From the NCBI GenBank assembly GCA_026025075.1, contig JAPEUI010000012.1, positions 62,001 to 126,000 on the forward strand: a DNA stretch of 64,000 bases, written 5' to 3'. Within the stretch, counting starts at the first letter, position 1. Every line of letters begins with the position of its first letter. Both the position numbers and the translations under genes were made by a program. The notes beneath the pieces were generated by a model. The model was not told the origin of the DNA, did no database searches, and saw only the letters and a list, made by a program, of their open reading frames with translations. Positions 44,819 to 64,000 of this stretch are shown here, one piece after another. Source of the stretch: Vezdaea acicularis (Eukaryota).

Positions 44819-45769
44819 AATATCTGATTCCTTAGTCCCATACTTCGGGATCTTTCTCTATCGTGTCATGGCGCCCGTGAAGTCCCTATCCGCCAAGGTC
44901 TTGTTGATATGATGGCGATTTTTCCATTTCTCAGCTTGGGGGGTCTCTCAATTGTCTTTCATAAGTGAAGTCTATAAGACATGATCAAACTGTCCACTTT
45001 CAAACTAATGTGATATTCGTATCGCGATCTCCTTGATTCATTTCTTGGCCCTAAAGATATTAGAACAACAAACTCGGACCTTCTCGCTTGGGTAAGGAGC
45101 TAAATCCGGGACATGGTCCGTGTCCGAATTATTACCCGTCCAACTGCTCCTTCAGGATTTGATGCACGAATAGTCTTACAATCGCCCCTTCAAGACCATC
45201 GGCATTCGACACAGGTTTCGTAAGGGACTTAATTATTTAAGTCGACCATCTCAGTTTCCTAGTTACTCTAAAATTCAAAGTCTCCTACCAGCTCTCTCTC
45301 CTACAATTTTTGCTTCAGTGAATGTGTTTGGGCCAGATGCCGGAAGCGAAAGTATTCGTGAGACTTCCGAGACTCAGAGGTTCACAAAACCTTACGTGCA
45401 TTCCTCCTGGATTCGACTTTGTTTATTCTCGCAAGGGTGACCAGCTTCGTTGTCAAGAGAAAAGATGAACTGGAGCGGTTATGAGCACGGATCATCGTGG
45501 TTGACCTAACATTGCAAGGTTGGCGATACCGGCTACCTGCTTCGTCTTGCGCACAGCTCACCTTGCCTTGCGACCAAACAAACTTTCCAACCAAGAATCA
45601 CATTGGACCTGCCCGATTTACGCTTTCCTTTTTCCCATCTCTTATTTCTCTGTTCATATTTTAATCTCATCATATGTGAGGGACTCAATTCCCCCGTTCT
45701 ACCACTGGCAGGATAGATAGCTTGGTTTCTAAGTTATACCACAAGCCCAAACTCGACGCTTGGTACACC

Positions 45770-48491
45770 ATGAGGCTCAGCTTCTTTATGGCGGGCCTGT
45801 TGGCAAAAGTCATCTCAGCAAACATCATTTTCAATCACGTTCCGCTGTCCTGTGACCGCATGAGTCAAGCATACACTGGCTGTCTTCGAGGACAACATTG
45901 TACTGAGAATGGAACGTAAGTATTAGCTTCCTTCAAGCCTGAATTAGACTCTGACAAATTCATAGATGCGAAGTGGCCTCAGGAGATCTTTACCCCTCCT
46001 CATTTCGACCTACAACGGGTGAATTGAGCAAACGTGATTATTCAGTAAATGGACAATGCGGACCCAACAATGGCAATCTATTGTGTGACCCAAACGCCAC
46101 TGGCTATACGGGGACCTGTTGCTCTCAATACGGATGGTGTGGAAACACTCCGGCCCACTGGTAGGTGTCCCAGCGTCTACAGAGCCAGGGGAAAATTTCT
46201 GCATTGATACGCCTGGAAGCATGGCCCCTATCGGTCACTTGAGCGGTCTACCGCAGCTTCTAGGTGTAGCAATATGGATTTTCGTACTTGGCTTGTCAGG
46301 TCTGTAGACGTTTCCACTAACTTAAGTTTTAGTGGCGACGGTTGCGTCTCTGGATGTAGTTCATCTAGCCCTTCGTCTTCTGCTGCTCCCACCCAGCCAA
46401 GCTCCAGTACCACCCCCCGCTCCGATGGCCGCTGTGGGCATGACTTTGGTGGCGCGACCTGCGATCCCAAAGGCGCTTATGGCGGCTGTTGTTCCCAATA
46501 TGGTTACTGTGGCTCTACTGACGGACATTGTTCACCAGCAAATGGATGCCAAAACGGATGTGCCGGTGCATCGCAGCCTTCATCAGGAGGAAGTAGTATA
46601 GCACAAAGCCAGCCTCCTTCTTCGACAACAACTGGTGAGCCCGTTATATCATCACCATCCTCCACATCGCAAGCAACAAATGGTGGCGTTACTACCGATG
46701 GGTCGTGTGGCCAAGCGAACGGCGGAACAACTTGCGGCAACTGGCCGCAGGGGTCTTGTTGTTCCATGTATGGGTACTGCGGCAATACAGCCTCCCACTG
46801 TGGGGCCGGATGCCAGTCTGGGCCATGTGCCGGTGGCGCAGCTGCACAAGCGCCTGGCCCTAGTCCGGCCCCAGCAAACCCTAATGGAGGCTCGTTCCAG
46901 ATTGTTGGACAATCTGGGGCTCCTGCCATGCACGCAGGGCTTCTTCCTAACGGGCGTTTCTTCGTCCTCGACAAAGTGGAGAATTATACTCAGATAAAGT
47001 TATCCAATGGTCAATACGCCTATTCTACCGAATATGACCCGGCCACGAATACCTACGTACCCCTTTCCTACGTAAACAACGCTTTCTGTGCTGGGGGATC
47101 GTATCTTGCCGATGGTCGAGTAGTGTCACTAGGAGGCAATGCTCCACTTCCTGATATTGACCCAACTGTAGGGAATGGATTCGACGCTATCCGCTATCTC
47201 TCTCGGTCGTCATCGGACGCCAGTCTTGATGGCCAAGGTTGGTCCGAGCCAGGTAACAAATTGGCAAGCAAGCGTTGGTATCCTTCTGCCCAAACTCTAC
47301 CTGACGGCACTGTCTTTGTTGCGTCTGGGAGTCTTAATGGTTTAGACCCTACAATCTTTGCGAACAATAACCCAACGTGGGAACTCTTGGATTCTCAAGG
47401 GGTCTCCAACGGCGTCAGTGTTCCAATGGATATTTTGGCCAAAAATCAGCCATACTATGTAAGTGTATATTCTCATGACATATATATGAGAAGAATGCTG
47501 ACGAGGTTTTGATCAGATGTACCCATTTATCCATTTGATGAGCGATGGAAACCTCTTTGTGTTTACATCTAAATCATCGGAGAGCTTTAATGTCGGCAGT
47601 AAAACCACCATCAAGGCCTTCCCCGATCTTCCTGGCGATTACCGAACTTATCCTAATACTGGTGGTAGCGTAATGCTACCCCTCTCAAGCAGCAGTCAAT
47701 GGGCCCCTGACATCGTCGTCTGCGGCGGCGGCGCCTACCAAGATATCACTAGTCCCACCGACCCCAGCTGCGGTCGTATCCAGCCTCTTGGCGCAGGAAC
47801 ATGGGAGATGGACTCAATGCCCGAAGGCCGCGGCATGGTTGAGGGCACGATTCTCCCTGACGGGACAGTCATCTGGCTTAATGGCTGCGACCGTGGTGCT
47901 CAAGGCTATGGTCTAGGTGCAAGCCCAACATATGAGGCCCTAATATACGATCCCACCCTGCCCCTTGGCAAGCGATGGACTACTGGTGCTTCATCAACCA
48001 TCGCTCGCATGTATCACTCTGTTGCATTCTTGCTGCTCGATGGCACCTTGCTTGTCACCGGCTCCAACCCAGTCGAGCAGCCTATTCTTCAGCCTTCTGC
48101 GCAGAACCCCTATGTCACCGAATTCCGTGTCGAGGTGTATACTCCGCCCTACCTATCAGGCGATAACGCGAAAAAGCGCCCTACAAATGTCCAGCTTTCG
48201 TCGACCGCTTTGAAAGCAAATGGAGCGCAATTCACTATCTCCTTTACGTGTCCCCAAGGTGCGCAGGGTGTGAAGATCTCATTGTACCATGGCGGTTTTG
48301 TCACGCACTCGGTACATATGGGTCATCGGATGGCCTTCCTCGATAATACAGGCTTCAACGCCGGATCGACGTCACAGACTGTAACCGCCACAATGCCGCC
48401 GAGCTCGAATATTGCTCCACCAGGACCGTATGTCGTCTACGTAGTGGTCGATGGCGTTCCTTCTGTCGGACAGACGGTGCTGGTCTCGTAG
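45770..48491 (+). CDS. Secreted copper radical oxidase (CAZy AA5_1, glyoxal oxidase-like) with three N-terminal CBM18/hevein chitin-binding domains
   Basis: Signal peptide; three CG...C...CCSxYGxCG...HC modules; catalytic motifs NAFCAG, RWYP, RTYP, RMYHS and FVTHS; C-terminal APPG.Y domain; three introns. Confidence 0.93.
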
Positions 48492-49758
48492 GTCCCTCAC
48501 ATCAGGAAGGGGTCACGAGAGTCTATACAATTTGCTTTGCATTCTCTTCTTGTATACTTGCCTAGTTCTGATAACCACTTCTTTTAATACCTCTGGTTTA
48601 GTGGGAGTTTCTAGGATCATTATCTATGATAGATGGACTTTTTCTAGGGTCAAAAGCGGACAAGGGTGCATGGCTATAATCCATTGTGTCTTAGTGGCTT
48701 GCATACTGATCTTGATTTATTGCAGCTCGTATGCTGCTCAGAGCCGGATGGTCCTAGGGCTTGCAACTAATCTAAACTCACTTTTTCCGTACGTGGAGAC
48801 TATTCTCGTATACTGTGATCCACTTAAGACATCCACCCTGATCTCACACATAACCGCCTCGCCCACCCGCCAACGCTACTAGCCAGCTCGTACGCCTAAA
48901 GCTTTTCATGCTTCTTTTCTTATCTTGCCATCTCTAAAAGCTTTATCTCTCCAACCTGAAATCATACATATCGCGCTATCCGACTCCCTTGCTGAAAAAG
49001 TCCTTTCCATTCCCTGCGTGACGCTTTGTCTTCTCCCAGGCTTCGCCGCCGTTCGCCTTGTCTCCTTGGCCGAAATCTTGGAATGACTTCGGCGCAGAAT
49101 ATGTTTTTAGTCGCTCGCTTCGGGGACATGACGAGCAGATAAACAGCTGTATACTGGTGTGCTCATACATAAGGGAAGAGAGGATAGACAGCCACATTGT
49201 AGAGACGGTGGACTTGGCAGTGAAGTGCGTTTGGAATTAAAGCTACATGGTATGCCAAGAATGACATTTGGACGGCGTTGCCAGTTCGAGGGGATATTGG
49301 TATGGGGAACAGGTTTCTTTCCGGGTTTCATCACCCCTTCTGTGTTTGTAGAAGTTTCATGAAGCTTATCATGGACAGCGTTCAGTTCGGGCAAGCAGGA
49401 TATAAAGGATTTATTCTACCAAGTTTCCGATTACTATTGGACAAAGATAACATCCGCAGACTTCAGTGTCTGCTGCCTTAAAACTTTTGCAAGATTTGTC
49501 TAACCCTCGGTGTCTATGCAAGGACATTAAGAAGATCGCCTTAAGTCTAGGATCAAGAGGTTTTTCGTAAGAGGGACCAAACTCCGCCAGACCTAAACTT
49601 AGAAGACGAAGAAGATGATGAATGAGCGACTCAGTCTAAAGTTCTCATATCCCAGAAAGATCCCCAAGAGCTTCATATTGGATATCCCGTTGAGTGTCGC
49701 ACATAGAAGACCTAGGTAAACGCAAAACTCCAGATAACGCCCCAAACCGAAGTACGGA

Positions 49759-51985
49759 TTAAGTCTCAATTGCGTAAGATTGCGTCGAAGTTGGCCAACC
49801 AGGCATGATGCTGGCGTAGAAAGCCGGATCTGAAGTCAGGAAATAGTCAAGATCAAGCTCACCCGAGAGGTCATCCTGCATTTGGAAGTCTTGGTCTTGA
49901 TAGGGCGTAGCCTCGGGAGGGCTCAGCACACTCTTCGCTAGAGCTGGGGTTGCGTGCAGTCGTTTGATAATATGCTCGCTCCTCAGCTTCATCTTTTGGA
50001 AGACATATCTGAAGTGCCAGAACATGTCTTTCTGCTCTTCTCCTGATGGTGTTCGGCTGACAAGCTCGCCCATCCGGTTGGCTAAAGAGTCGAGGTAGTA
50101 TCCTAGATTTGCCGTCTCTTGTAAAGTGTTGACGTCCAGCGAAAGGCCATTCACGCCGGCTGCTATCTTACTTAGAACAATCGTCGTATATGTCAACCTC
50201 GTAGCTTGCATGATGGTACCGTTTCGATTTTCTATTAACGGTAGGCTGAGATGGTAATCTAAAAAGGCCTTTGCTGCGTCAAGACAGCCAAGAAGCATGT
50301 TCATCTGTGTTACAGACGAGCGAGACGGATCAGAGTAAACCGGATCATCTCGAACGTGGAGTCCAATTTCGTGAATATAGACTTTGGTATGGTAGAATGC
50401 ACTCATGATAGAGACTGTCATCGCTTTAGCTCTTTCACTCTTTTTGATACTCTCATCATGACAAGGTGCGATTTCACTTACCCATGCTTAGAGCCTGTAA
50501 AGGCAGAGATTCTTTGAGACTATGCAGCTTGGACTGGAACGTCTTGTGTGAATAGTCAAGCTGAGATAGCCCCAAGGCATAGGATCCCTCTGACTCTTCG
50601 TAGCCGAACGTACTACTCACTTCTTCGGCCAAGCGCTGTATACGCACATAGTGTTTCAGAAAGCTATCAAAGGGCGATCGTCCGCTTTCAGCCAACACTT
50701 CACAGCACTCTTCGACGTGACTGCTGAACTTCAAGTTGTTTGGCCTTCTTAATGCAAGAGACAAACTAGTGGGATTGTCAGTTACGTGCTGAATAAAGAG
50801 CCTTGACGCTGGCTTACCAGGAAGAGACGTAGTAGCAGCCAACAAATGCTCTCATTCCTTCATCATCATCTACAGGCTCATACCTATCAGTCATTTCAGA
50901 ATCTGCAACTTCGAGCAGATCAATCGTGGTCTGCTTTGACTTCGATTTTCTGGGAGGCTTCGTCAGGCCTAGATCTACCGCCATGGCAATGGCAAGCTGC
51001 ACCAGTTGGTAGATTTGCTGACGATCAGGATGGAAATGGAAGTGGTACCTTTCGTGCCGTTAGTATGCATGTCGTATACAGAAGAGCAGCAAGGAAATGT
51101 TCATATTTTTCTTACCAGGCAAGGTAAACTATCAAACCTTGGAGTAAATCAAGGCTTTTCTCCGCCTCGAATATCACTTTGACACTCAGCGTCTCTCGGA
51201 GCTCTCTTTCGAGAAGAAAGGAGAGCCTTTGATTTGCCTGTGATGTTGTAGCAAGTATCGCAAGTAGCAGGATAGGCCTTTGTGTCCGAAGCTCCTCGAG
51301 GGAAAGGTTTGAGGGTAGAAGCACAAAAGGGAAGTTCGCCTCGAAGGCTTGAAAGCTTTGTATCAAACTTTCCGCCTCCGAAATTGTCAGTATGCCTCGC
51401 TGTATCACATCTCGCCGAAAGTCGCTACTTGATCCCGGAGACAGAGCTGAGGGGCTGAGATCATCCACAAGCGTCTCAGCCGGTGAGAATTTCTCTGAAG
51501 AGTCATTGGATCGTATCGAATCATCTGTGACAGTCCCTGGCGGCGGCGGCGTAGGCTCCGCCGATGCACTCGTTGGGCGAGTCCCGGCTGTAAGCAGAGC
51601 CACTATACCATCGATCTTCTTCTCCATTTCTGCAACCCGTCTAGTTCGAAAGTTACGTTAGCTTCTGTGGAAAGTAACTACGAGATATATCCCGATGATT
51701 TGAAGATATATACGCACGTTTTTGTCTGGCGTGCTCGTCTCGATCGTGACTGGGCCTCCACAAATATGCATTCTCTCCCGCTCCTCGAACATCTAGATTA
51801 CGTATGAGCATATGTGATAATCCGGTATACGAAACTCGTGCAACATACTTCTGGCATTTCCCCTGCGGTTCTGAGCTTGGTAAACAGCGGGACTTGGAAG
51901 CGCGACAAGCCTCGCATGATCGAAGAAGGTTTGGTTTCTTGGTCGCATCCCGAGTCTCCATGGCTGGGTTCACAGTGGTCGTCAT
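49759..51985 (-). CDS. Zn(II)2Cys6 fungal transcription factor with middle homology region
   Basis: CEACRASKSRC...GKCQK|CSRSGREC spans intron 51793-51848. Further motifs FPFV, KSLDLLQGL..Y.AW, AVDLGL and RAFVGCYY. Multi-exon. Confidence 0.9.
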
Positions 51986-52820
51986 CAAGCCCGGAAGTGG
52001 GGACAACTCTGCTTGCTTTATGCGTATTCTGCACAAAAGCTTCGAGTAGTAACAAGCCGGACGGGTAGCATTGACCAATGCCGGTAATCCTCCAGCGAAC
52101 CACGTTCTGCGTAGAGTGTGGGGTAGAGGGTCGCGACGGGAACCGGAGATGGGCTGGGCCGAGCCTTAAGAAAGCAAGCTCAAGCCGCGGAGGCTTTGTC
52201 TCGCCACTAACACGAGCAAACTCGACCTCGGATTCGGGGCAACAGTCGTGACACTGGAGCTACCACCGCTTTGATTGATGTCGGCTCTGCCTTTGTCTAT
52301 AGAGTCTGGTCGATTTGAGTGATCAGAAGGCTTCCATCGGCTGAACCGCGCGGAAGTGTCCGTCTTAAAGCACGACCAGAGCTCACATGTTTGGTAGCGT
52401 CAGCGAGGATTTTCTTCGTGGTACGACTACGCCTCTGACCGACTGCCGACAAGGGGTGCAAGGAATCCTTTTCTTCTTGTTGGATGTCTATCAAACACTG
52501 ATCGAAGGTCTTCACAGTAAGCTAGATCCAGCCCTAATCCGGCATTAGAGTCCTCGTATTTCACCGGGACCATATGCTTGTCAACGGGCATACGGTTGCG
52601 CATGGATGGGGGCTGAGGTCTCTCCTGCATTGTCACCGCAAGTAAGATCTTAATGGCCGTTACGCCGACGGCGTACATCCCCCGCCCCAGAGTATGACCC
52701 CGGCGATCAGCTCGTTGCTTATTCCGATGCCACCATATCTCTTTGAGCTGTTTACATGGACGCCTTGAGCTCCCGCAAGATTTCTTTCTTTCAAGCAATG
52801 ATAGCATATTTCTTCGCGTC

Positions 52821-54200
52821 ATGAAGCGCCCTATACCCCAGCTTGAGGATTATGGCATTTCGCCCCATTACGGTTTTCTGCCATCCGAACTACCGCTTGA
52901 GGTCTTACCAGATCCATACTATGCCGACTGGGAGGTGATAGTGGCAGGTTTACCAAACCTGCTGGAAAGTAAGAGATTGAGACACGCTATCAATAGGCTC
53001 CCAGTCTTGTCCATCTCGCGACTCTGTTCAGAGCCAGAATGGAGAAGGGCATATTCACTACTAGGTTTCATGGCCCATGCATACATATGGGGAGGTGATA
53101 GGCCTTGCGGAGTAAGAACGTAGAGTTGCCCTCATAATAGAACATACGCTGATACCACGAACCAGCGGTTGCCGCCTGCTATTTCAGTTCCTTTTCTTGC
53201 AGTTGCAGAACACCTTGAGATCCCTCCAGTTGCAACTTATGCAAGTGTTTGCCTCTGGAATTTCAAACCCAACTATGTACATGCCAATCTCAATAGCATC
53301 GACGACCTTTCGACATTTGCAACATTCACGGGAACCTTAGATGAGTCTTGGTTCTATTTGGTTTCCATCACGATTGAATCACACGCGGCTCCAACCATAC
53401 AAATGCTGCTCGATGCAGTCGCTGCTGTCCGCACCCAGGATGTCCTGACTGTCACTCTTTGTTTACAAGCTTTTGCGGAGACGCTAGAGGACCTTGGAGA
53501 GCTCTTGGAACGCATGCACGAGAAATGTGACCCACACGTCTTCTACAATAAAATTCGACCCTACCTTGCTGGCAGTAAAAATATGGCAGAAGCCGGACTA
53601 CCACGAGGAGTGATCTACGATGACGGAACCGGCAACGAAGAGTACAGACAATATAGTGGAGGCAGTAATGCTCAAAGCTCGTTGATTCAGTTCTTTGATA
53701 TCATGCTAGGCGTTGTCCATCGACCGACTGGTCACGGCGCACGAGAGATCTCTGCTGTATCCGCCGTTTCAGCTACAGCCCGCAGTCTAGACCACAATGC
53801 ACGACTAGACTTTCTCAAGGAGATGCGATTCTATATGCCTGGTCCCCACCGCCGCTTTCTCGAAGACGTGTCAAAGATTGCGAACATCCGCCAGTTTGTT
53901 GAGGGCCGCAGCTCAGACATCTATCTCCGCGCCGCTTTCAACGACTGCCTCGCTATGCTTCGCTCCCTTCGAGATAGGCATATGCGAATTGTATCTCGCT
54001 ATATTGTCAAAAAGTCCAAAGATACTCGTCCACATATTCAAGGTAATGGCGCCGTCAATCTTGCTTCCCTAGCGACTGCGAAGGGAGGTAAGAAGCCAAA
54101 ATCCGTGGACCTCAAAGGGACTGGCGGGACTGGTCTCATACCTTTCTTGTTGCAGGTCCGGAACGAAACCGGTGGTGACTCGATGGTTTTGGCTAGCTAA
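52821..54200 (+). CDS. Indoleamine 2,3-dioxygenase (heme, BNA2/IDO family)
   Basis: Motifs YGFLP, AHAYIWG, FTGT.DESWFYLVS, FY..IRPYLAG, YSGGSNAQSS, YMPGPHR, proximal His in R..H..IVSRYI, and GTGGT. Intron at 53112-53165. Confidence 0.95.
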
Positions 54201-54495
54201 AGCGAATGAATCCCATTTTAGTGTACTTTTCTTCTAGTAGACGTGTCATTCCATCGATTTGTTTGCATCATCGCCAATAGATAGATATATCAGTATACGT
54301 GTCAAGTCATTCAGTATATATATGATGTACGATGGAAGAACTAATCAACAAGCCGCACAAGTGAAATCGAAAAAAAACAAAGCCAATCATAACTTATTCT
54401 CTACTCGATCTAATACCGCGCAGTATGCGAAAGTGATATCTCATACAACAGGAATGGACGCTATCTAGGAGACGTCAAAAGTGGGCCGGGAATTT

Positions 54496-56637
54496 TCAAA
54501 CTTGGACTGAGAAGTCAGTGTACTGAGCTAGGCCCGGGAAGAACATCCCCAGCAGAACGTAGGTGCAAAACAACGCCAGAACCGCAGTCCTCACAAGTGA
54601 AGAGAAGCCATTGATTACCTCCGTGATTGAACCTTCAGAACTCCCTTTATCACCTATAAGTTTTGTTTGTGCAGCATTGATGGAAGCCTCATCTCGAGCC
54701 CGGCGATCTTTAGCAACGCTGGCGTAGACCTAAGACGTGTAAGCATCTAGTCTTGTACGCAGTGAAGGAATGATACTTACTCTAGGATACATTGGTCGTA
54801 GCCATTCCTTCATGAAACGCACAGGGGTAGGAAGGCCTTCAACATGCCCCGAATGCAAGCCCATGTCTCCGAGAAGCTCATCGGTGAAGAGCGTGGTGTG
54901 TGTTCCAATATGTACACCCTTCTTGCCATTAGAGGCGTATGACTTCCCTTGCCATGCGTGAAATTCATCGATGCCTAGACACTAGTTAGCGCGACGCTAT
55001 GGTAACGGCGTGACATCAATTACCTGATTCCACTGTTTGCTGGTCTGGCACGTCAATTTTACCCATAAAGTAGTCTGATATCCAGTGGGCGGTGACGTGA
55101 GCCACAATAGGGACAGTCAAACTGTAGTTAAAACCGTTGAAAGCGATATTACGGTAAGGCATTTGCTTTCCGCTCACATCTTTTCGTCTGTGAATGGTTC
55201 CAGTCGGAGCTATTAGCCGGTGAAGTCTAATATAGTCAAAGCTTGTCTTGTCTTCCACGGTAGCATCCGGGAGTACAAGTCTTAGGGTTTTGATAGTGTC
55301 ATCTGTGAAGAAAGGTAGAGCCTAGGAGTTGAGTTAGTTACCACATACAGCGTACTTCCAGTAGAAATTATGCATACCAGCTTAAACCCTGTAGCAAGAA
55401 GGAGGATGTCGGCATCTATATTCATCTTTTCCTCGTTTCTCCCTTTCACATAGATCTGACCGTCTTGAACGCCATCAAGACAACCTTCGATAATCTTGAT
55501 ACGACCACTTTTCACGCATTCTGTGAAGCCAGGGGGCTCAACGTGAATGCCCCCAGACAAAGATTCAGAAAGAGGGTGCTTTGCTTGAAGTTCTCGAAAT
55601 TTTTGGTGTTTCAGGGTCTTGACAAAGTCGTCCTCAAGGATTCTGAAGATATTTCGGGTGCACCACTTCCCAATAGCACTATCGGCAATAAGACGATGCA
55701 CGTTGTCAGGATGGCGGGCGTACGGCATCCACATACTCTATAACATTTGGCGTTAGCATTCGGATGCCACTCACGAGCTATGAGTTACAGTACTTACGAT
55801 GAATCGGGAAAAGAAAACCTTCTCGAAAGGCACCGTGCCTCGAAAGATCTTTCGCGGTACAAGCCAATGGGGCCTCCTGTAAAGTAGGTTGACTTGCATC
55901 GGCTTCCTATCTTTGGTTCTCCAGGTTCCCAATGCAAGTTGTGTTGCGAGGTCCACGCCTGACTTTCCCGCTCCAACTATCATGACGCTGTCCGCATTAA
56001 CGACATTACTCCGAAGCTTCGCTTCACCCATATCAGCGGAATGGTAGACAATTCCATCATATTGAGAGATCTGAGCGTCGTCTAAGGGAGTGAGCTTCGT
56101 GTTATAGAGCCCTGTACACACAACTATGTAGCCGAATTGTCGTTCGAAGGTTCCTTTAGCAGCGACGCCCCTTACAGTCCAAGTCAAAGTCGCAGCGTTC
56201 CAACTAATATCATCGACCTGGGTCTGGCATCGGATACGCTTTGTGAGATCAAAATGATCCGCAAAGCTGTGAAAGTAGCGATTCACATTTTGAGCAGATA
56301 CATGGACCCCAGATGCCCGAATGTCCGGAGGATAAGGGAATTCAGGAAATTCGTAAGTTAGTAGAGGTGAGTTGGTAGTAAGACCCTCATAGATCTGATT
56401 TTCTGCCCATACCCCTCCGATAGTGGTATTCTTTTCAAATATTGTTACGGAATCAAAGAATCCATTGGAGTCATGGAGCAAGACTTTCGCGGTTGTCAAG
56501 CCATGGAGCCCTGATGAGGTCGAAAATGTTTAGTCATCAAGCTACTCGCGTGTCCGAGGATCTAACCTACCGGCGCCGATTACCAAAGCGTCTCGCTTTC
56601 CCCATCCAGCTGCGATATCAACATGGTCAGAAGCCAT
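54496..56637 (-). CDS. Class B flavin-containing monooxygenase (FMO-like) with C-terminal hydrophobic anchor; multi-exon
   Basis: FAD motif VIGAG|LHG, FEK...IGGVW, FMO-like fingerprint YDGIVYHSADM, NADPH motif VGAGKSG, and LATGF. The last exon ends LVRTAVLALFCTYVLLGMFFPGL...V*. Confidence 0.88.
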
Positions 56638-57366
56638 TGCAAATGTCAATTCAGTTGCTTTGAATCTGACACTGATCTGTTTCCTACAGGAAGTACCCAA
56701 GATATATCATGTCGGCTGGTAAGAGCGACCGATAACCCGATCTCAGGGGGTGCCAGAGGGCATGGAAGTTCGGAGTATGCGGTCAAAGCTCACCGCGCAG
56801 GTCCGTCACTCCGACAAGGGTGCGAGGTCAGGATGCCACATAACCTCGCATGATGTACAGCGGCAAGGGTTTACCGCCGACATTCAAACGTAATGATCGT
56901 ATTGTCACTCTTTCAACCGGCCAGTCAACACCCATCAGTTGACCTCCGCTGTTGTTTCAGTGAGGGCTCGGGGCTATGCGGAGTGTAAGGAGCAACTCCT
57001 ACGCCGTAAGCCTATTTCACATGCCCAATCGGGGAGGCATTCCCTAGTGTTGGTTATGGTGTGTGCGTCCCGGCGCCTTGCAAAGGCCAAGGGGTTTTCT
57101 TCTTTCCATACCGTATCCTTGCTCAGAACTTCAATTGCGTTCGTATTGGCTCAAAGCCTTTGTTTGGCTATAAGTGCTCTTCTCATCATGCACGACCATG
57201 GCGCAAGCCCAGGACTATTGGTCTTGCCCACATTCATAACCAGTGCGTTTTCCTATTCAATTTCAAGACTAGTTTGGCTTCTTCACCATCTTCATACAAA
57301 GTTTGCCCATCTCCTTGCTAAGTGCGAAGACACCTCAATAGAATCTACTACCTCGTACCAATAAAC

Positions 57367-58609
57367 ATGTCGACTTCATTCCACTCCAGCAGCGTCCCCT
57401 CAATGATCTTGATTCGCGAGATCATTGAAGACATTGCAAACCATTTCCTCTTTCCGTATGGGTTGATATTTGGATTGGTACTCCTCACGTCACCGGGCCT
57501 ACTAGCTCTCTTTGCTCAAGTTGGGGGAAAGCAACTCCCTTTGTCCATCTCACCAAAGAAATACGTATCTTGGGCAGACGACGTTGAAATCAAAGAAAAG
57601 CTCAAGACCCAATCGCCTCTTAGAGATATCGAGTGCCCGTATGAATATATTCTACAGGTCTATGGCCGGCACCATTTTACAACTATGGTGAATATCTTGG
57701 ACCCAAAACTGTCAAAGAAGGATCCTGTTCTATTCAAACTCATTCTTGATGTCATGGATGTAGTTCATTTTGGAGCAATCTTAGTCGACGACGTCGCTGA
57801 TAACAGCACGCTACGCAAGGGCAAAACAGCTGCTCATTGTATTTACGGATCCAGCGAGACAATCAACCGGGCTTATTTGCGTATCTTTGAAGTTATTACC
57901 GCCTGCAAGAAGCAGAGACCGTCAATGATCCCGTTTATCCTCGACAATTTGACTCAGATTCACGAAGGTAACGACTGCTCCCTTTGTTTCCAATCATGAT
58001 ACTCATCTAGTCTGTCAGGTCAGGACATTTCCTTAGTCTGGCGTCGAGATGGGTTTCCCGAAGCTTTGCAAAAAGACCAAGCCCTCGATGCCTACAGGCA
58101 CAGCGCCTTTCTAAAGACTGGAGGTCTTTTCAGACTGCTTGGTCAACTAGTATTCGCAAGCCACGAAAAGGATGAACTCATGAGCAAGGTTGCGTAAGTT
58201 CTAGGACATTCAAAGGAGCTATTCTCGTTGCTGACGTGGTGACTGTAGATGGTACTGCCACCTCCAGAATGACTGCAAGAACATTTACTCGAAAGACGTC
58301 ATTACAGCGAAAGGCGCTCTCGCTGAGGACCTTGAGAATGGCGAATACAGCTTTCCGATCGTCCTCGCTCTTTGTTCCTCCCCTGCCACAAGCAAATTAA
58401 TTAAGAGAGCATTTCAGGCACGGCACAGGAGTTGTGTAGCTGGCCGCGATCGGCAAATCAGATCTGCTTTGGCCGTCCTGCAAAGTGACTGGGTAAAGGG
58501 CGCATGCATGAGTGAGCTTGAATCCTTGCAGAACGACGTCTCGGAATTTGCGGTTTTATGGGGCCGCAATGAAAAGATGACTCTTGGGTCGGGTACACTC
58601 AAGGCTTGA
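57367..58609 (+). CDS. paxC-like: PaxC/IdtC-type indole prenyltransferase (trans-isoprenyl diphosphate synthase fold)
   Basis: Motifs CPYEYI..VYGRHHF, LVDDVADNS.LRKGK.AAH.IYG.SET.NRAY, GQDISLVWRRDG, LKTG.LFRLLG.LV, LQNDCKN, AEDL.NGE and C-terminal WGR.EK, all characteristic of IdtC enzymes. Introns at 57968-58018 and ~58194-58248. Confidence 0.9.
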
Positions 58610-60066
58610 GGAGCACAATGACAGATCGACGGATTCACAACAAATTCACATGGTTCACTACTAGATTATACAAGTCTTTCTTATTCGCGATAATGACTTC
58701 TTTGGTTGATTTAGGCGCTTTCTATATACTTGCATGCATACAAGCTTCTTAGAAAAAGTAAAGATCAGTACGATTGCTCGGTTTTGTCCATGCGTTGATG
58801 TTGGTCAATGCTCTTTCAACCGTAGCACTACTCTCTTGATATCCTAACGCGCGTTAATTCATTATTCGCCCTAGGCGAATCAAAATCGTTTAGAAATTAA
58901 ATGCGAAATCCGGTGCTTGAGCTGCCGGGTTGTCGGAACCATACAGCGTGTCCGTCCGATGTCGACACAACAAACTTTGGCACTAGTGCCGTCCTCGGAT
59001 ACGCTAGCAAGGGCTTGCTGCATGGCATTAGCCTAACCCTGCCACAGATCACCCTTTCACCGCCCCCGGCGCTAGAAAACGTTGTATGATGCTGCGTCAG
59101 CGCTACACAACCAGTTGTTAGACGGTATCGGCTTCGTTGTTCCAACCTCCGTTGCGGAGGAAGCACCAATAGTTGTCAGCCCTAGCACCCCCATCGATGA
59201 TCCCTGTCCGACGACCTTCCACGGCTGATTCCAAAGCGCATACAGATGAGTGAAGACGAGCTGATGCCTAGGTCGGGGTAAGGCCTGGGAGCGGACCGAT
59301 GCGGACCCTTTAGCCTCCCGCGTTTCTTCACGGGCCTTCCGCTCCCCCGTTCTCCTTCATGCCGAGCCTAGCTAACCGGAACGGGGTGATTCAATACTTT
59401 GTCTTTCTTAGTTCATAGCTAAGCACATTTGGATCGGAGTAATACGTTGCTCTGTAAACTACTCTATGTACTAATGCTCTTTAACATGATGCTTAATTTA
59501 ATTTGAATCTGTCTCTCTCAAGATGGACAACATTCGCGTGAATCTGGTGCACCACGTAACACTGTGCGACCGTTACACAGCGGCTGATGTCATATCCAAT
59601 AACATTTCAACAACTTAAAATGCCGTCAGAAGAGGAGAGTCCCCACAGATGTGGATGTTTGAGATAACACCGACTCCAGTACTCAGGGCTGCAAAAATGC
59701 CATCAATTTGACTTGTGTGCAGTAAGCATTACGGATTACGAGATGACTTCTATGCCTCGACAGGCTATGTTTGACAGTCGCTACAGAATGCCGACCCCTA
59801 CGTCCTTACCGCATACCTTGTTCGTTGAGCGGCAAATGCAGGGGCTTTTACGGCCCTATCACCCCCAAAAAAGCAACTAGCAAATGTAGGCTTGATCGGA
59901 CTACGGCGCTTCTGGGGCCGTTTGATCGGGCCTTTTCATTGCTCATCGTCCCATCAACTTCATCTAAACATCTTTCTTCCATCGCATTGAAAAAGAAACC
60001 CTTTCGCAGCCACACACCAAACAAGAAAGACCCATACTAGTACAGTGCTGACGAATAAACGCCACG

Positions 60067-60984
60067 ATGCATCTTCCCGTTGGCGAAATAGATGCGATCA
60101 ATATGCCGACTGAGCTATACCTCACAGTGCAAGATGGTCTCAATGTAATGGCAGGTATCTTCTGGACTGTTGCCTATGTACTCTACATAAGACAATCCTT
60201 CCGTGATGAGTCCTATGGGATGCCGCTGCTCTCCCTGTATGCATGAAAGATCCATCTGTATATTGAAAATACAGGATACTGACGTACTCGATGATAGCTG
60301 CGCGAACATTGCCTGGGAGTTGATTTACAGCGTCTTCTATCCCCCTACCGTCGCAGACCAAATTGTCTTTTTCCCCTGGCTAATCATCGACATGGTACTC
60401 GTCTATGCTACAATCAAATTCGGGCCCAAAGACTGGTCTCACTCTCCGTTGGTTGCGCAAAATTTAGGTTCTATCATCGCCTTGGGTTCTGTTATGATGG
60501 TGGCGCTGCACTGGTCATTTGCACAAGTTTTTGATGGAGACTTTGGGCAGGCTGCGTACTGGAGCGGCTACGCGTGTCAAGCAGTTGTCAGCTGGAGTGC
60601 CATCTCACAGCTCATTTCAAGAGGCAATACTAGAGGTCACTCTATCGGCATATGGTAGGTTCTGCCCTATCCGTTGAAGCTTAATAAACCTTCTGCTTCC
60701 TCGATACTGACGCTTACTTTGCACTGTTCAGGTGGTGTCGATTCCTCGGTACCTTGTGCGTTACAGCCGTCTTTATGTGGCGGATATACCATTATCCCGA
60801 CTCATACTATTATGTTTTGACCCCAATGGCCGCATATCTTTTCGTGGCTCCTTATATAGCCGAGCTGGCATACCCTGTGGTCTTCTATTATATTCAGAAG
60901 CTGGAGAGAGCAGACGGGCAGGTCAAGACCAACGGTTCAGTTGATCCACACCTGAGATCGGCGAAGAACATCAAGCTCTTTTAG
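60067..60984 (+). CDS. paxB-like: PaxB/Pyr4-family integral-membrane terpene cyclase
   Basis: Motifs W...Y...IRQSFRD.SYGMP...L|CANIAWE, W..ID, KFG...W.HSP.V and L..RG.TRGHS..IW|W.RF.GT; very hydrophobic. Introns at 60237-60297 and ~60656-60731. Confidence 0.92.
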
Positions 60985-62328
60985 GTAGTCTGCTAACGCA
61001 TAGACTGGATGGCTGAACAGAGCGCTTATGCCACATGTATGGCGAAAGTAGAAAAGCGTAGCAGGAACTAGGCAACCTACCGGGCAAGGGAAACGGCTAG
61101 ACTCATAGATTATTCTTGATGTATGGGATATCATGGCAAATTTCAAGTTGGCGATAAAAGTGCTGTTATTCTTTGGTTACTAAATTCGTTGGTACATGGG
61201 TTGTGACTACGCGCGCAATACTGTGGTTCACTAGAATAACCCTCATTAAAAATTATCCATCTCTAAGAAATAAAGAAGGAGCCTATTTATTTGTGGGACA
61301 AAGTTCATGAATCAAACTTAATAATTTTGGATTATTTGGGTGATTTCACGCTTCGAGGGATCGGTGATGGGGGCTCACGGAGAACGGTAAAACTTTGTCG
61401 CGCCGAAGATCCGAAGCGACTCCGTCAATGTGTAACGCCCATGCCCTACAACAACATATCGACCCCCCTCATCACACTGCATCGGACCTCGGTGTCATCA
61501 AGGATGGTGTAGCCTGTACCTTCTCATTCTACTGTAGGCCACCACGGCCCCGCTCCCCATCGAACTGCAAAGGTCGGTGGTCAAAGCGCCAGCTTTTCAG
61601 CCGTGTCGTATTTACGCCATGTCCTTGTCATCGCTTAGAGAGTGGTAACCGCCGAAACCAGGGATTTAAATGCATACAACCCCTATCCTTGCGTCACCAA
61701 CATTAGTCTCTCGACAATGCCAAGTGATCATGGTCGGACACTATTATTTGGCCCTCCTAAGCCACGCTCACACTTTCGGTCGGACTGAGGTGAGCCAAAA
61801 CGCCTCCCGATACGCCTCCCGCCGCGGGCCGGCGCGTCAAACGAGACGACCCTTGGATAATACGATGATGAGGGGCCACGTCTTGGCAGTCCCCAATCTT
61901 CCAGGCTTACAGAGAGGGTCTAGACTGTGCCAAGCTGGATTGCCCCGAAGTCGATGATCTAAGACTGATTACTCAAATGTTTGCGGTCATACTCCAGAAG
62001 CACGGGGGCAGCCTACGATTGCCGTATGGTCAGACCTGGATGCGAAAGGGGTATATCGGCTTAAGAATTATCAGCTGATTCGCTAAGGCGGCCCCTGGGG
62101 CACAGATAAGCTCAGGTCTGCAGGTGGGATTATCGCGCTTATACCATTCATGCCACCACTCCTGTGCGGGCGGTATGGCCGGGATGATTCCGCTCTTTTT
62201 CGTTTGGCTGAGATTATTGTGGCCAAAGCGACTAACTCTGGCATAGTACTAAGAAATTTGTTCGCTACGCTCTATGAGAAGCTACAGTAATCGCCGAGCT
62301 CTTAGTAGTCGAGGAGTACCAACACAGC

Positions 62329-62419
62329 GCGTATCGCCATGCAGGCTAATCTCCTGGAGACCTTGGACTATCAAACATGAAGCGTATCGCCATGCAGGCT
62401 GATCTCATAGAGAACTTGG
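62329..62419. repeat. Imperfect direct repeat, 2 x ~38 bp (53-bp period)
   Basis: GCGTATCGCCATGCAGGCT(A/G)ATCTC..(G/A)GAGA(C/A)CTTGG at 62329 and 62382. Confidence 0.8.
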
Positions 62420-63548
62420 CGTTTGTGTATCGATTTTCCGTATACGCTGCGCCTCTATCCAGTACTGACATACCAACCAACATTCATTGGTTACACGGTC
62501 ATATAACCGCTAATCGAGGGACATACCGCCAATATCGAGTAGGGTGCTCCCAATGGATCGTGCTCGGCTTGGCGTTCCGCGAAGGTGGTCCACGACATGG
62601 ATAACCTCGTGTTTGACATCCTTGGCCCGGAAGGACATGCACTCACCCGGGCGACCTCCCGATCCCGCTTGAGCACAGGTCGAGAAGCCCTACGGACACA
62701 TCCCACAGTGGCCAAGAAATTAGTTGATATTTGGAATATGCCGGCAGAAGCTGTGATCAGGCGTACTTGCATACCACTAGAAGAGACTGGAATGGGGCCA
62801 TCTGACACTGCTTTGTCGATGATCGACGGCTTGACAATTTAGGCAGCTCGCTGAGGCGTTGACATGAGGCAATTAGCCGTGAAAATTGCGTCTGATAGTC
62901 GCGCTATGCGTCGGAGCTTGCCACGCCGCTGCTGCACGGCGTACCTGGGACGGCAAATTCCAAAGAGTTTTCCACGTCGGGGGCCGGAAACCTTAACCGC
63001 CTCTCTCACGGTCCCGTATAAGCTGCAGGACCTCCCGAGACGGCGGGTTTCGGTAAACTAAAGCCGACCAAATGGTGCTGACGGTTGCGCTGACGTTGCT
63101 GTCCGCCTCCGGACGTCATACACGCCCGACTCGTATCGGACAGTCGGCTTCCTGCTTACCGTCCCTGACTGACTGGACCGGAGACCACAGCGGGTGAAAT
63201 GGCTGCGAGCGCGAGAGGGAGAAGTGGCTTACTGAGCGGGTACTTTGCCACTTTGTACCTATTGGGTATTCGGTTTTGTTTGAGATAGGGGTTAAACCCT
63301 AAGTCAATCTCTAAACCGACCTTGGAGTTAGAAAAAAGAAGAGTTATGCTACAGTAACAGCAGATGCTAACTCTTCAACCTACACTAATTACGAATTCGT
63401 AATTAGACGAAACATCTCAAAGCGTGAAGGACCATCTTCACCTCTCTACGGCGTTATGCTTTCATAATTAGGCAATGATCTCTTAGAGATCACCGTAGAA
63501 CCGGGGGCTAGTCCATCTACTATCCACTAGAGAACATAGGGCAAGTAA

Positions 63549-64000
63549 ATGACTGAAGTTCTTAATGCGATAAGAGAGCTGAACCAATACAATATCAGCA
63601 TGGATGCCACGCGTGCCCTTTCTTATTCTTACGAATAGACATGGGCCTTTAGCCACTAACACAATATCGGCAATATTGGCATATATTCTAGATTATATCA
63701 ATCCAAGGACGATGTACTTTCAGGAGAACACCATATACCATGCCACAAAGATATTTGCGTTGGCTTCGAGGTCACTTATGGCATTGTCTATTTAAATAGT
63801 CCCTGAAAACAGGAAGAAAAGGGTCATTTCTTACAAAACATCTTGAATAAGGACAGTAACTGTGATATAGCTGAAGACAGAAGCACGAGAAAACATCGTA
63901 GAGTCCGATGATAACATTTTGTACAATTTCAAGCTGTCTCCACTTCGCATTTGATAACAAAGAAGCTTTAAAAACCATCGTAAAGTCTGATAACAACATG
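63549..64000 (+). pseudogene. Degenerate AT-rich ORF remnant (possibly RIP-mutated gene or transposon)
   Basis: The frame from the ATG at 63549 reads MTEVLNAIRELNQYNISMDATRALSYSYE*TWAFSH*HNIGNIG...LNSP*KQEEK... with scattered TAG/TAA/TGA stops in AT-rich sequence. Confidence 0.35.

Follow-up and report, generated by a model that had tools for sequence, protein, structure and literature searches.

Fungal indoleamine 2,3-dioxygenases (IDOs) of the alpha type (IdoA/Bna2) serve the de novo synthesis of NAD. In A. nidulans, loss of idoA is reported to be lethal on minimal medium unless idoB or idoC is induced, and idoB is carried by Botrytis as well (PMC11530996). Extra IDOs adjoin natural-product genes in several fungi, as with TzpB (terreazepine), NanC (nanangelenin) and AcdA (aspcandine); a survey counts 118 IDO-containing clusters among about 38,000, the characterised ones that it names feed NRPSs, TzpB is given as 41-45% identical to IdoA/IdoB, and resistance copies of IDO in clusters are proposed there but not demonstrated (PMC7448278). 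Canonical indole diterpenes are described as requiring IdtG, C, M and B (PMC9913125), and 131 PaxC+Pyr4 clusters have already been catalogued, one of them in Rhizophlyctis (PMC11109268). A literature search, with subscription journals mostly outside its coverage, found no IDO in an indole-terpenoid cluster, which counts as weak evidence; PMC11173184, PMC7558492, PMC13720968 and PMC12038925 added nothing on the IDO.

The window analysed here, a 64,000-nucleotide stretch of DNA from Vezdaea acicularis, contains an IDO beside an indole-terpenoid core, a real and uncommon feature (Table 1). The gene resembles those of TzpB, NanC and AcdA in being an extra IDO adjoining natural-product genes, and a transcription factor (TF) gene adjoins tzpA/tzpB too (PMC11530996, PMC7448278). 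Unlike TzpB and NanC, which are reported to feed kynurenine to an NRPS (PMC7448278), the window IDO is derived from IDOalpha and has no NRPS beside it: no NRPS-like ORF was found in 45-64 kb of the window or in the following 30 kb. Relative to paxilline-type clusters (idtG/C/M/B), equivalents of idtC and idtB are present, whereas no clustered idtG, PaxM-type epoxidase, P450 or idtA was seen and a class B flavin monooxygenase (FMO) is found instead.

Table 1. Features of the IDO locus and of the adjoining indole-terpenoid core (positions in the window).
Feature	Position	Strand	Evidence or description
Zn2Cys6-type transcription factor gene	49759..51961	-	ORFs; six Cys by eye; Fungal_trans E 0.007
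Divergent intergenic region, TF to IDO	51962..52820	.	860 bp, head-to-head
IDO, whole gene	52821-54200	+	two exons, 441 aa, zero internal stops; start ATG at 52821, stop codon ends 54200
IDO exon 1 (97 codons)	52821..53111	+	Pfam IDO E 1e-31, profile 2-90
IDO intron	53112..53165	+	GT-AG, 54 nt; position equals intron 1 of housekeeping IDOalpha
IDO exon 2	53166..54200	+	Pfam IDO E 1e-121, profile 93-410 of 412
Class B flavin monooxygenase (FMO-like) gene	54500..56637, 3' limit approximate	-	Pfam FMO-like E 5e-18; homolog coverage 56514-54508
PaxC-like indole prenyltransferase gene	57367..58609	+	Bcpax1 69% over 56% of query
PaxB/Pyr4-like transmembrane terpene cyclase gene	60067..60984	+	three exons together span Pfam PF25129 positions 2-226 of 227

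The structure of the gene agrees with what a sequence-only reading of the same stretch had described, namely an intact IDO transcribed divergently from a TF gene and adjoining indole-prenylation genes. ORFs, Pfam and alignment to human IDO1/IDO2 concur on the retained GSNAQSS loop, the proximal His (H369, equivalent to human H346) and GTGGT, and the protein has the attributes of a heme IDO (PF01231) in Pfam coverage, proximal His, GS(N/A)xQSS loop and GTGG loop. Exon 2 encodes the catalytic domain with the proximal His and GTGGT, and lacks intron 2 of IDOalpha. The TF gene starts head-to-head with it on the minus strand (start at 51961, 860 bp upstream). The 3' end of the IDO lies ~0.3 kb from the FMO gene, beyond which come the PaxC-like prenyltransferase and then the PaxB/Pyr4-like cyclase; the IDO is positioned at the edge of the conserved terpenoid core, rather than within it. 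ORFs and Pfam matches revealed no kynureninase or formamidase gene adjoining the IDO and no other kynurenine-using gene in the cluster. Contigs of sequencing run X5, which are ~92% alike, span 45000-53096 and continue from 61962, with nothing in 53242-61483; as no contig bridges this gap, the run was left out of the comparison.

To place the window IDO among its relatives, we compared the IDO copies found in the 18.9-Mb genome, in which a search gave four matches representing at least three genes. These include a canonical IDOalpha of 490 aa on contig C61, 59% identical to the window IDO (255/430 aligned positions), and a 466-aa gene on contig C7, 26% identical to it, which we label as probably of the IDOgamma type. 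The window IDO is thus paralogous to the housekeeping enzyme of the NAD pathway, as had been proposed from the sequence alone, and is not the only BNA2-type IDO of the genome. Searches of the genome, whose counts are lower bounds, gave no IDObeta-like copy and a single kynureninase match, on contig C29. Among homologs (the best 120 of 2596 matches, or 119 after removing the window IDO itself), mean identity was 57.6% to the window IDO, with no value above 61%, and 69% to the C61 IDOalpha, and 0/119 scored higher against the window IDO than against the C61 copy. The window IDO belongs to the IDOalpha lineage, since its top matches include 'alpha type' proteins at 56-60% and its intron 1 is common to the C61 gene. 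In trees of 23 rows (21 of the 119 matches and the two own copies, with zero IDObeta sequences included), the C61 IDOalpha grouped with Thelocarpon, Sclerophora, Piccolia and Sarcosagium, and the window IDO was placed apart from it on a long branch (1.35 versus 0.21 for the C61 copy); the AU test does not reject sisterhood of the two (p-AU 0.125), so that either transfer or duplication may have given rise to the window IDO.

Relative-rate tests found the window IDO to be faster with 5/5 outgroups (P<1e-5). It also lacks the C-terminal tail (~50 aa) of IDOalpha, the pattern of which is present in 110/119 of the best homologs and is visible by eye in eight of the remaining nine. Tail and branch length both speak against the window IDO as the housekeeping IDOalpha ortholog, a role filled by the C61 copy. 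Compared with fungal IDOalpha, it therefore shares the pocket, at most 61% identity and, with the genome's own IDOalpha, intron 1, and differs in being a second copy without the tail and intron 2, on a branch ~six times longer, paired with a TF gene beside a terpenoid core. The anatomy of IDObeta, an IdoB-kynureninase pair, is likewise absent, the divergent gene being a TF and the kynureninase match lying on C29, and GC3 does not distinguish the window IDO from the housekeeping copy (0.49 versus 0.50).

The divergence of the window IDO was distributed unevenly between the substrate pocket and the rest of the protein. We scored 46 pocket, heme and loop positions, chosen after human IDO1 structures and mapped by alignment to human IDO1/IDO2. 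At 44 of the 46 the window IDO carries the consensus of the best 119 IDOalpha matches, including the equivalents of R231 and T379 of human IDO1, the residues that bind the carboxylate and amine of Trp; it departs from the consensus by I>M at 370 and A>V at 428. Outside the pocket, it keeps the consensus at 189/327 columns, compared with 254/327 in the housekeeping copy. When columns conserved at 95% or more were considered, 2/40 pocket positions were changed versus 24/125 others (Fisher P=0.044), and near-invariant columns were altered at 26/147 in the window IDO, at none in the housekeeping copy and at six or fewer in any reference. The changes are concentrated outside the pocket at residues 134-185 (134-148 and 165-185), 356-390 and 426-441; relaxed constraint may explain five or six of the altered columns, which sit at the C-terminus beside the lost tail. 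This pattern of residues points to a window IDO that still acts on L-Trp and argues against a prenylated indole as its substrate, because the Trp-binding residues are kept and a terpenoid would have no amino-acid group to select them.

For the TF gene, as for those of the core, limits and intactness were judged on ORFs, Pfam matches and coverage by homologs. Reading the TF gene by eye through its first intron gives six cysteines, its Pfam support is weak (Table 1), and its Atlas neighbours are ascomycete Fungal_trans/Zn_clus proteins. Promoter words common to the IDO, FMO/prenyltransferase and cyclase regions did not exceed chance (18 7-mers versus a null mean of 16), and gapped words in the same regions gave no signal (20 versus a null mean of 13.6 and a null maximum of 26). 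On its other side the TF gene adjoins a chitin-binding plus glyoxal-oxidase-type copper radical oxidase gene (window 46208-48491). Long stretches without long ORFs occupy 58610-60066 and 60985-64000, where three short ORFs tested gave no Pfam match; a short direct repeat was seen by eye near 62330-62400, and two small MU117-like proteins, one of which contains a perfect run of pentapeptide repeats, are encoded just past the window (L005:1042-2273).

Searches of the genome found no PaxC-like prenyltransferase or PaxB-like cyclase besides those of the cluster. The prenyltransferase shares 57-73% identity with PaxC-type relatives across the aligned core. The remaining four polyprenyl synthase genes, labelled by eye as two FPP-synthase-like, one Coq1-like and one GGPP-synthase-like, lie on other contigs; the second FPP-synthase-like gene, L013:1360-2298 on contig C280, besides the copy on C261, is a possible source of farnesyl diphosphate for the cluster. 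Neither a GGPP synthase (idtG) nor a P450 or idtA gene was seen in the cluster. A PaxM-type epoxidase was also absent from it: 0/8 FAD_binding_3 genome matches (a lower bound of the search) were on C24, the contig of the cluster, and none of the five FAD_binding_3 loci inspected was PaxM-like, as judged by a sequence motif.

The FMO has its closest relatives in Geoglossum (61%), Trichoglossum (47%) and Botrytis (45%), followed by matches of 37% or less over full length. A profile search, with 10 of its 150 matches looked up, added proteins of Mycoleptodiscus (UUG60172.1, full-length and the top score among those looked up), Agyrium, the chytrid Rhizophlyctis and Trematosphaeria. In Botrytis, Agyrium and Trematosphaeria, that is, in 3/3 named genomes in which both were seen, the FMO and prenyltransferase accessions are consecutive; on these sequence comparisons, the FMO belongs to a narrow clade whose members tend to accompany PaxC-like genes. 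No relative of it was found among 154 candidates of a viral collection. A literature search gave no relevant support for regarding the FMO as a halogenase of the PtmN/RadH type. Mycoleptodiscin A, which bears on the possible product, is an indole o-quinone. Mycoleptodiscus is given as the genus that makes mycoleptodiscins (PMC8746379), mycoleptodiscin A being described as a drimane meroterpenoid (PMC11575645), and Bcpax1 of Botrytis is listed as producing an unknown indole diterpene (PMC9920419). The Mycoleptodiscus FMO may be tied to mycoleptodiscin; the FMO is the one gene through which a possible link of the present locus to that pathway was seen, for which a search with limited coverage of subscription journals found no biosynthesis paper.

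We further examined related loci by a metagenome scan, which yielded at least 10 prenyltransferase loci from 594 candidates, representing about four lineages and spanning 3.5-20 kb each, some of them short. Among the loci listed, the cyclase was present in 8/10 and the FMO in 4/10, and homologs of the IDO and the TF in 0/10. The FMO clade is shared with the FMO-PaxC-Pyr4 clusters of Botrytis (the Bcpax1 locus), Agyrium, Trematosphaeria and four metagenome loci (L021-L024), and occurs in Mycoleptodiscus, Geoglossum, Trichoglossum and Rhizophlyctis as well; other fungi thus have this core of FMO, prenyltransferase and cyclase too, and the loci seen carry neither PaxG nor PaxM. FMO, prenyltransferase and cyclase have the same order and orientation in L022-L024 as in the window, and the full order in L022 and L023 is MFS, SDR, FMO, prenyltransferase, cyclase. 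In the three loci that reach 4-7 kb past the FMO, an SDR gene is at the place of the IDO, with the MFS gene following in the two longest. The best genome matches of these MFS and SDR genes (63% each to L022; next 42% or less) form a pair on the cluster's own contig, ~22 kb past the cyclase (C24:145096-148476; L006:9093 to L007:2485), with unrelated genes between, and are probably displaced cluster members. The window cluster, which differs from L021-L024 in its IDO and TF genes and in this displacement of 22 kb, has therefore been rearranged, and the TF-IDO pair fills the place of the SDR in L022. Since the IDO is absent from the related loci listed, it seems dispensable for the pathway and is a putative lineage-specific add-on, accessory to the pathway. 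In L025, L026 and L028, the prenyltransferase and cyclase matches are frame-shifted or truncated and no FMO is nearby, which suggests that the cluster is decaying in that lineage.

The sequence-only reading had offered two roles for the IDO, and both lost ground. In the one, the enzyme cleaves C2=C3 of a 3-prenylindole or of the cyclised product to give a lineage-specific N-formylaminoaryl ketone terpenoid, as a heme IDO without the tail. Its position next to the core would suit this role, the changes at 134-148, 165-185 and 426-441 together with the loss of the tail could open access, a drimane-type product would leave C2 free, and indole C2-C3 cleavage is reported in a bacterial Pyr4-like pathway, but via a TPP enzyme (PMC13307353). 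We nevertheless consider such tailoring highly improbable, given that the residues for the Trp carboxylate and amine are kept, that conserved columns changed far more outside the pocket than within it (44/46 pocket positions kept versus 189/327 elsewhere), and that the related loci listed do without an IDO (0/10). In the other, indole is replaced as the prenyl acceptor by a kynurenine-derived aromatic compound that the IDO provides. Kynurenine supply is a known role of the cluster IDOs TzpB and NanC (PMC7448278), yet the prenyltransferase is of an ordinary PaxC type, closely similar to relatives that include ones from IDO-less loci, and the cluster holds no NRPS or other kynurenine-using gene; this role is scarcely credible. 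The IDO more likely protects or supports the pathway than alters its product.

Support could take the form of supply, the IDO turning spare Trp into kynurenine and on to anthranilate, thereby refilling indole-3-glycerol phosphate and easing Trp feedback. Indole-3-glycerol phosphate is the indole donor of PaxC. The retained Trp pocket and the kynureninase elsewhere in the genome are compatible with supply, as are the described route from kynurenine through anthranilate to Trp synthesis (PMC11530996) and the known provision of Trp-derived precursors by cluster IDOs (PMC7448278). We hold it to be quite unlikely even so: the housekeeping IDO could perform the same job, no IDO accompanies the related loci listed, and indole-diterpene clusters are described without one in the literature surveyed (including PMC9913125). 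Alternatively, the TF-IDO pair may be an independent, Trp-inducible catabolic unit that replaces the missing IDObeta and became a neighbour through the rearrangement that moved the MFS and SDR genes. This agrees with the lack of a detected IDObeta and the single kynureninase match, with the absence of both IDO and TF from 10/10 related loci listed, with the ~22 kb of unrelated genes that split the cluster and with the lack of detected common promoter words; moreover, idoB of A. nidulans is reported to be Trp-induced from a divergent promoter (PMC11530996). Against it, one extra indole-cleaving enzyme lies ~0.3 kb from the one indole-terpenoid core of an 18.9-Mb genome, and its immediate surroundings revealed no gene for kynureninase or formamidase. 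On balance, such a unit is an unlikely explanation.

The explanation that we prefer, tentatively, is that the window IDO is a Trp-acting backup that shields NAD synthesis from a cluster product, perhaps an indole-quinone, that inhibits IDO. The prenyltransferase would put a farnesyl or geranylgeranyl chain on indole C3, and the cyclase would close the rings without a PaxM epoxide, cyclisation being begun by protonation of an alkene. A core without G and M fits such a cyclisation, which would be required to make a drimane that lacks oxygen at C3, for example mycoleptodiscin A (PMC11575645). The FMO would then oxidise the indole, possibly toward a mycoleptodiscin-like indole-quinone. While this lipophilic indole or quinone inhibited heme IDO, a co-induced second IDO, which would go on cleaving free L-Trp to N-formylkynurenine, could keep the kynurenine-NAD route active. 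Natural 1,2- and 1,4-quinones are reported to inhibit human IDO1 (PMC9672321), and, with no IDObeta backup detected in the genome, protection may be needed more here.

The anatomy of a duplicated target is present at the locus: a second copy of an essential enzyme, with catalytic residues kept, at a cluster. Self-protection is further consistent with a housekeeping copy elsewhere, with a pocket kept amid fast change outside it and with the position of the IDO next to the genome's only PaxC/PaxB pair. That the sole extra indole-cleaving enzyme lies beside the sole indole-terpenoid core suggests a link between them, and the retained pocket together with the absence from sister loci suggests an accessory role. 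Resistance genes usually travel with their cluster, and the IDO, by contrast, is not conserved in homologous clusters (0/10 loci listed, from about four lineages, some short). The unchanged pocket also offers zero visible resistance mutation, promoter words shared above chance were not found, and rearrangement of the cluster could have brought the IDO next to the core by accident. The stronger proposal, that the window IDO is a self-resistance copy, and that the PaxM-less FMO-PaxC-PaxB module accordingly yields a fungal indole-terpenoid that inhibits IDO, is doubtful on this evidence.

Should the IDO be just a neighbour, the locus would hold no more than one further IDOalpha of the usual kind. 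Among drug targets is IDO, and the duplication of a target within a cluster points to an inhibitor, for which this five-gene locus would offer a small, directly testable case. The conserved FMO-PaxC-PaxB core without PaxG or PaxM, found in lichen-type fungi, Botrytis and Trematosphaeria, represents a candidate type of indole-terpenoid pathway.
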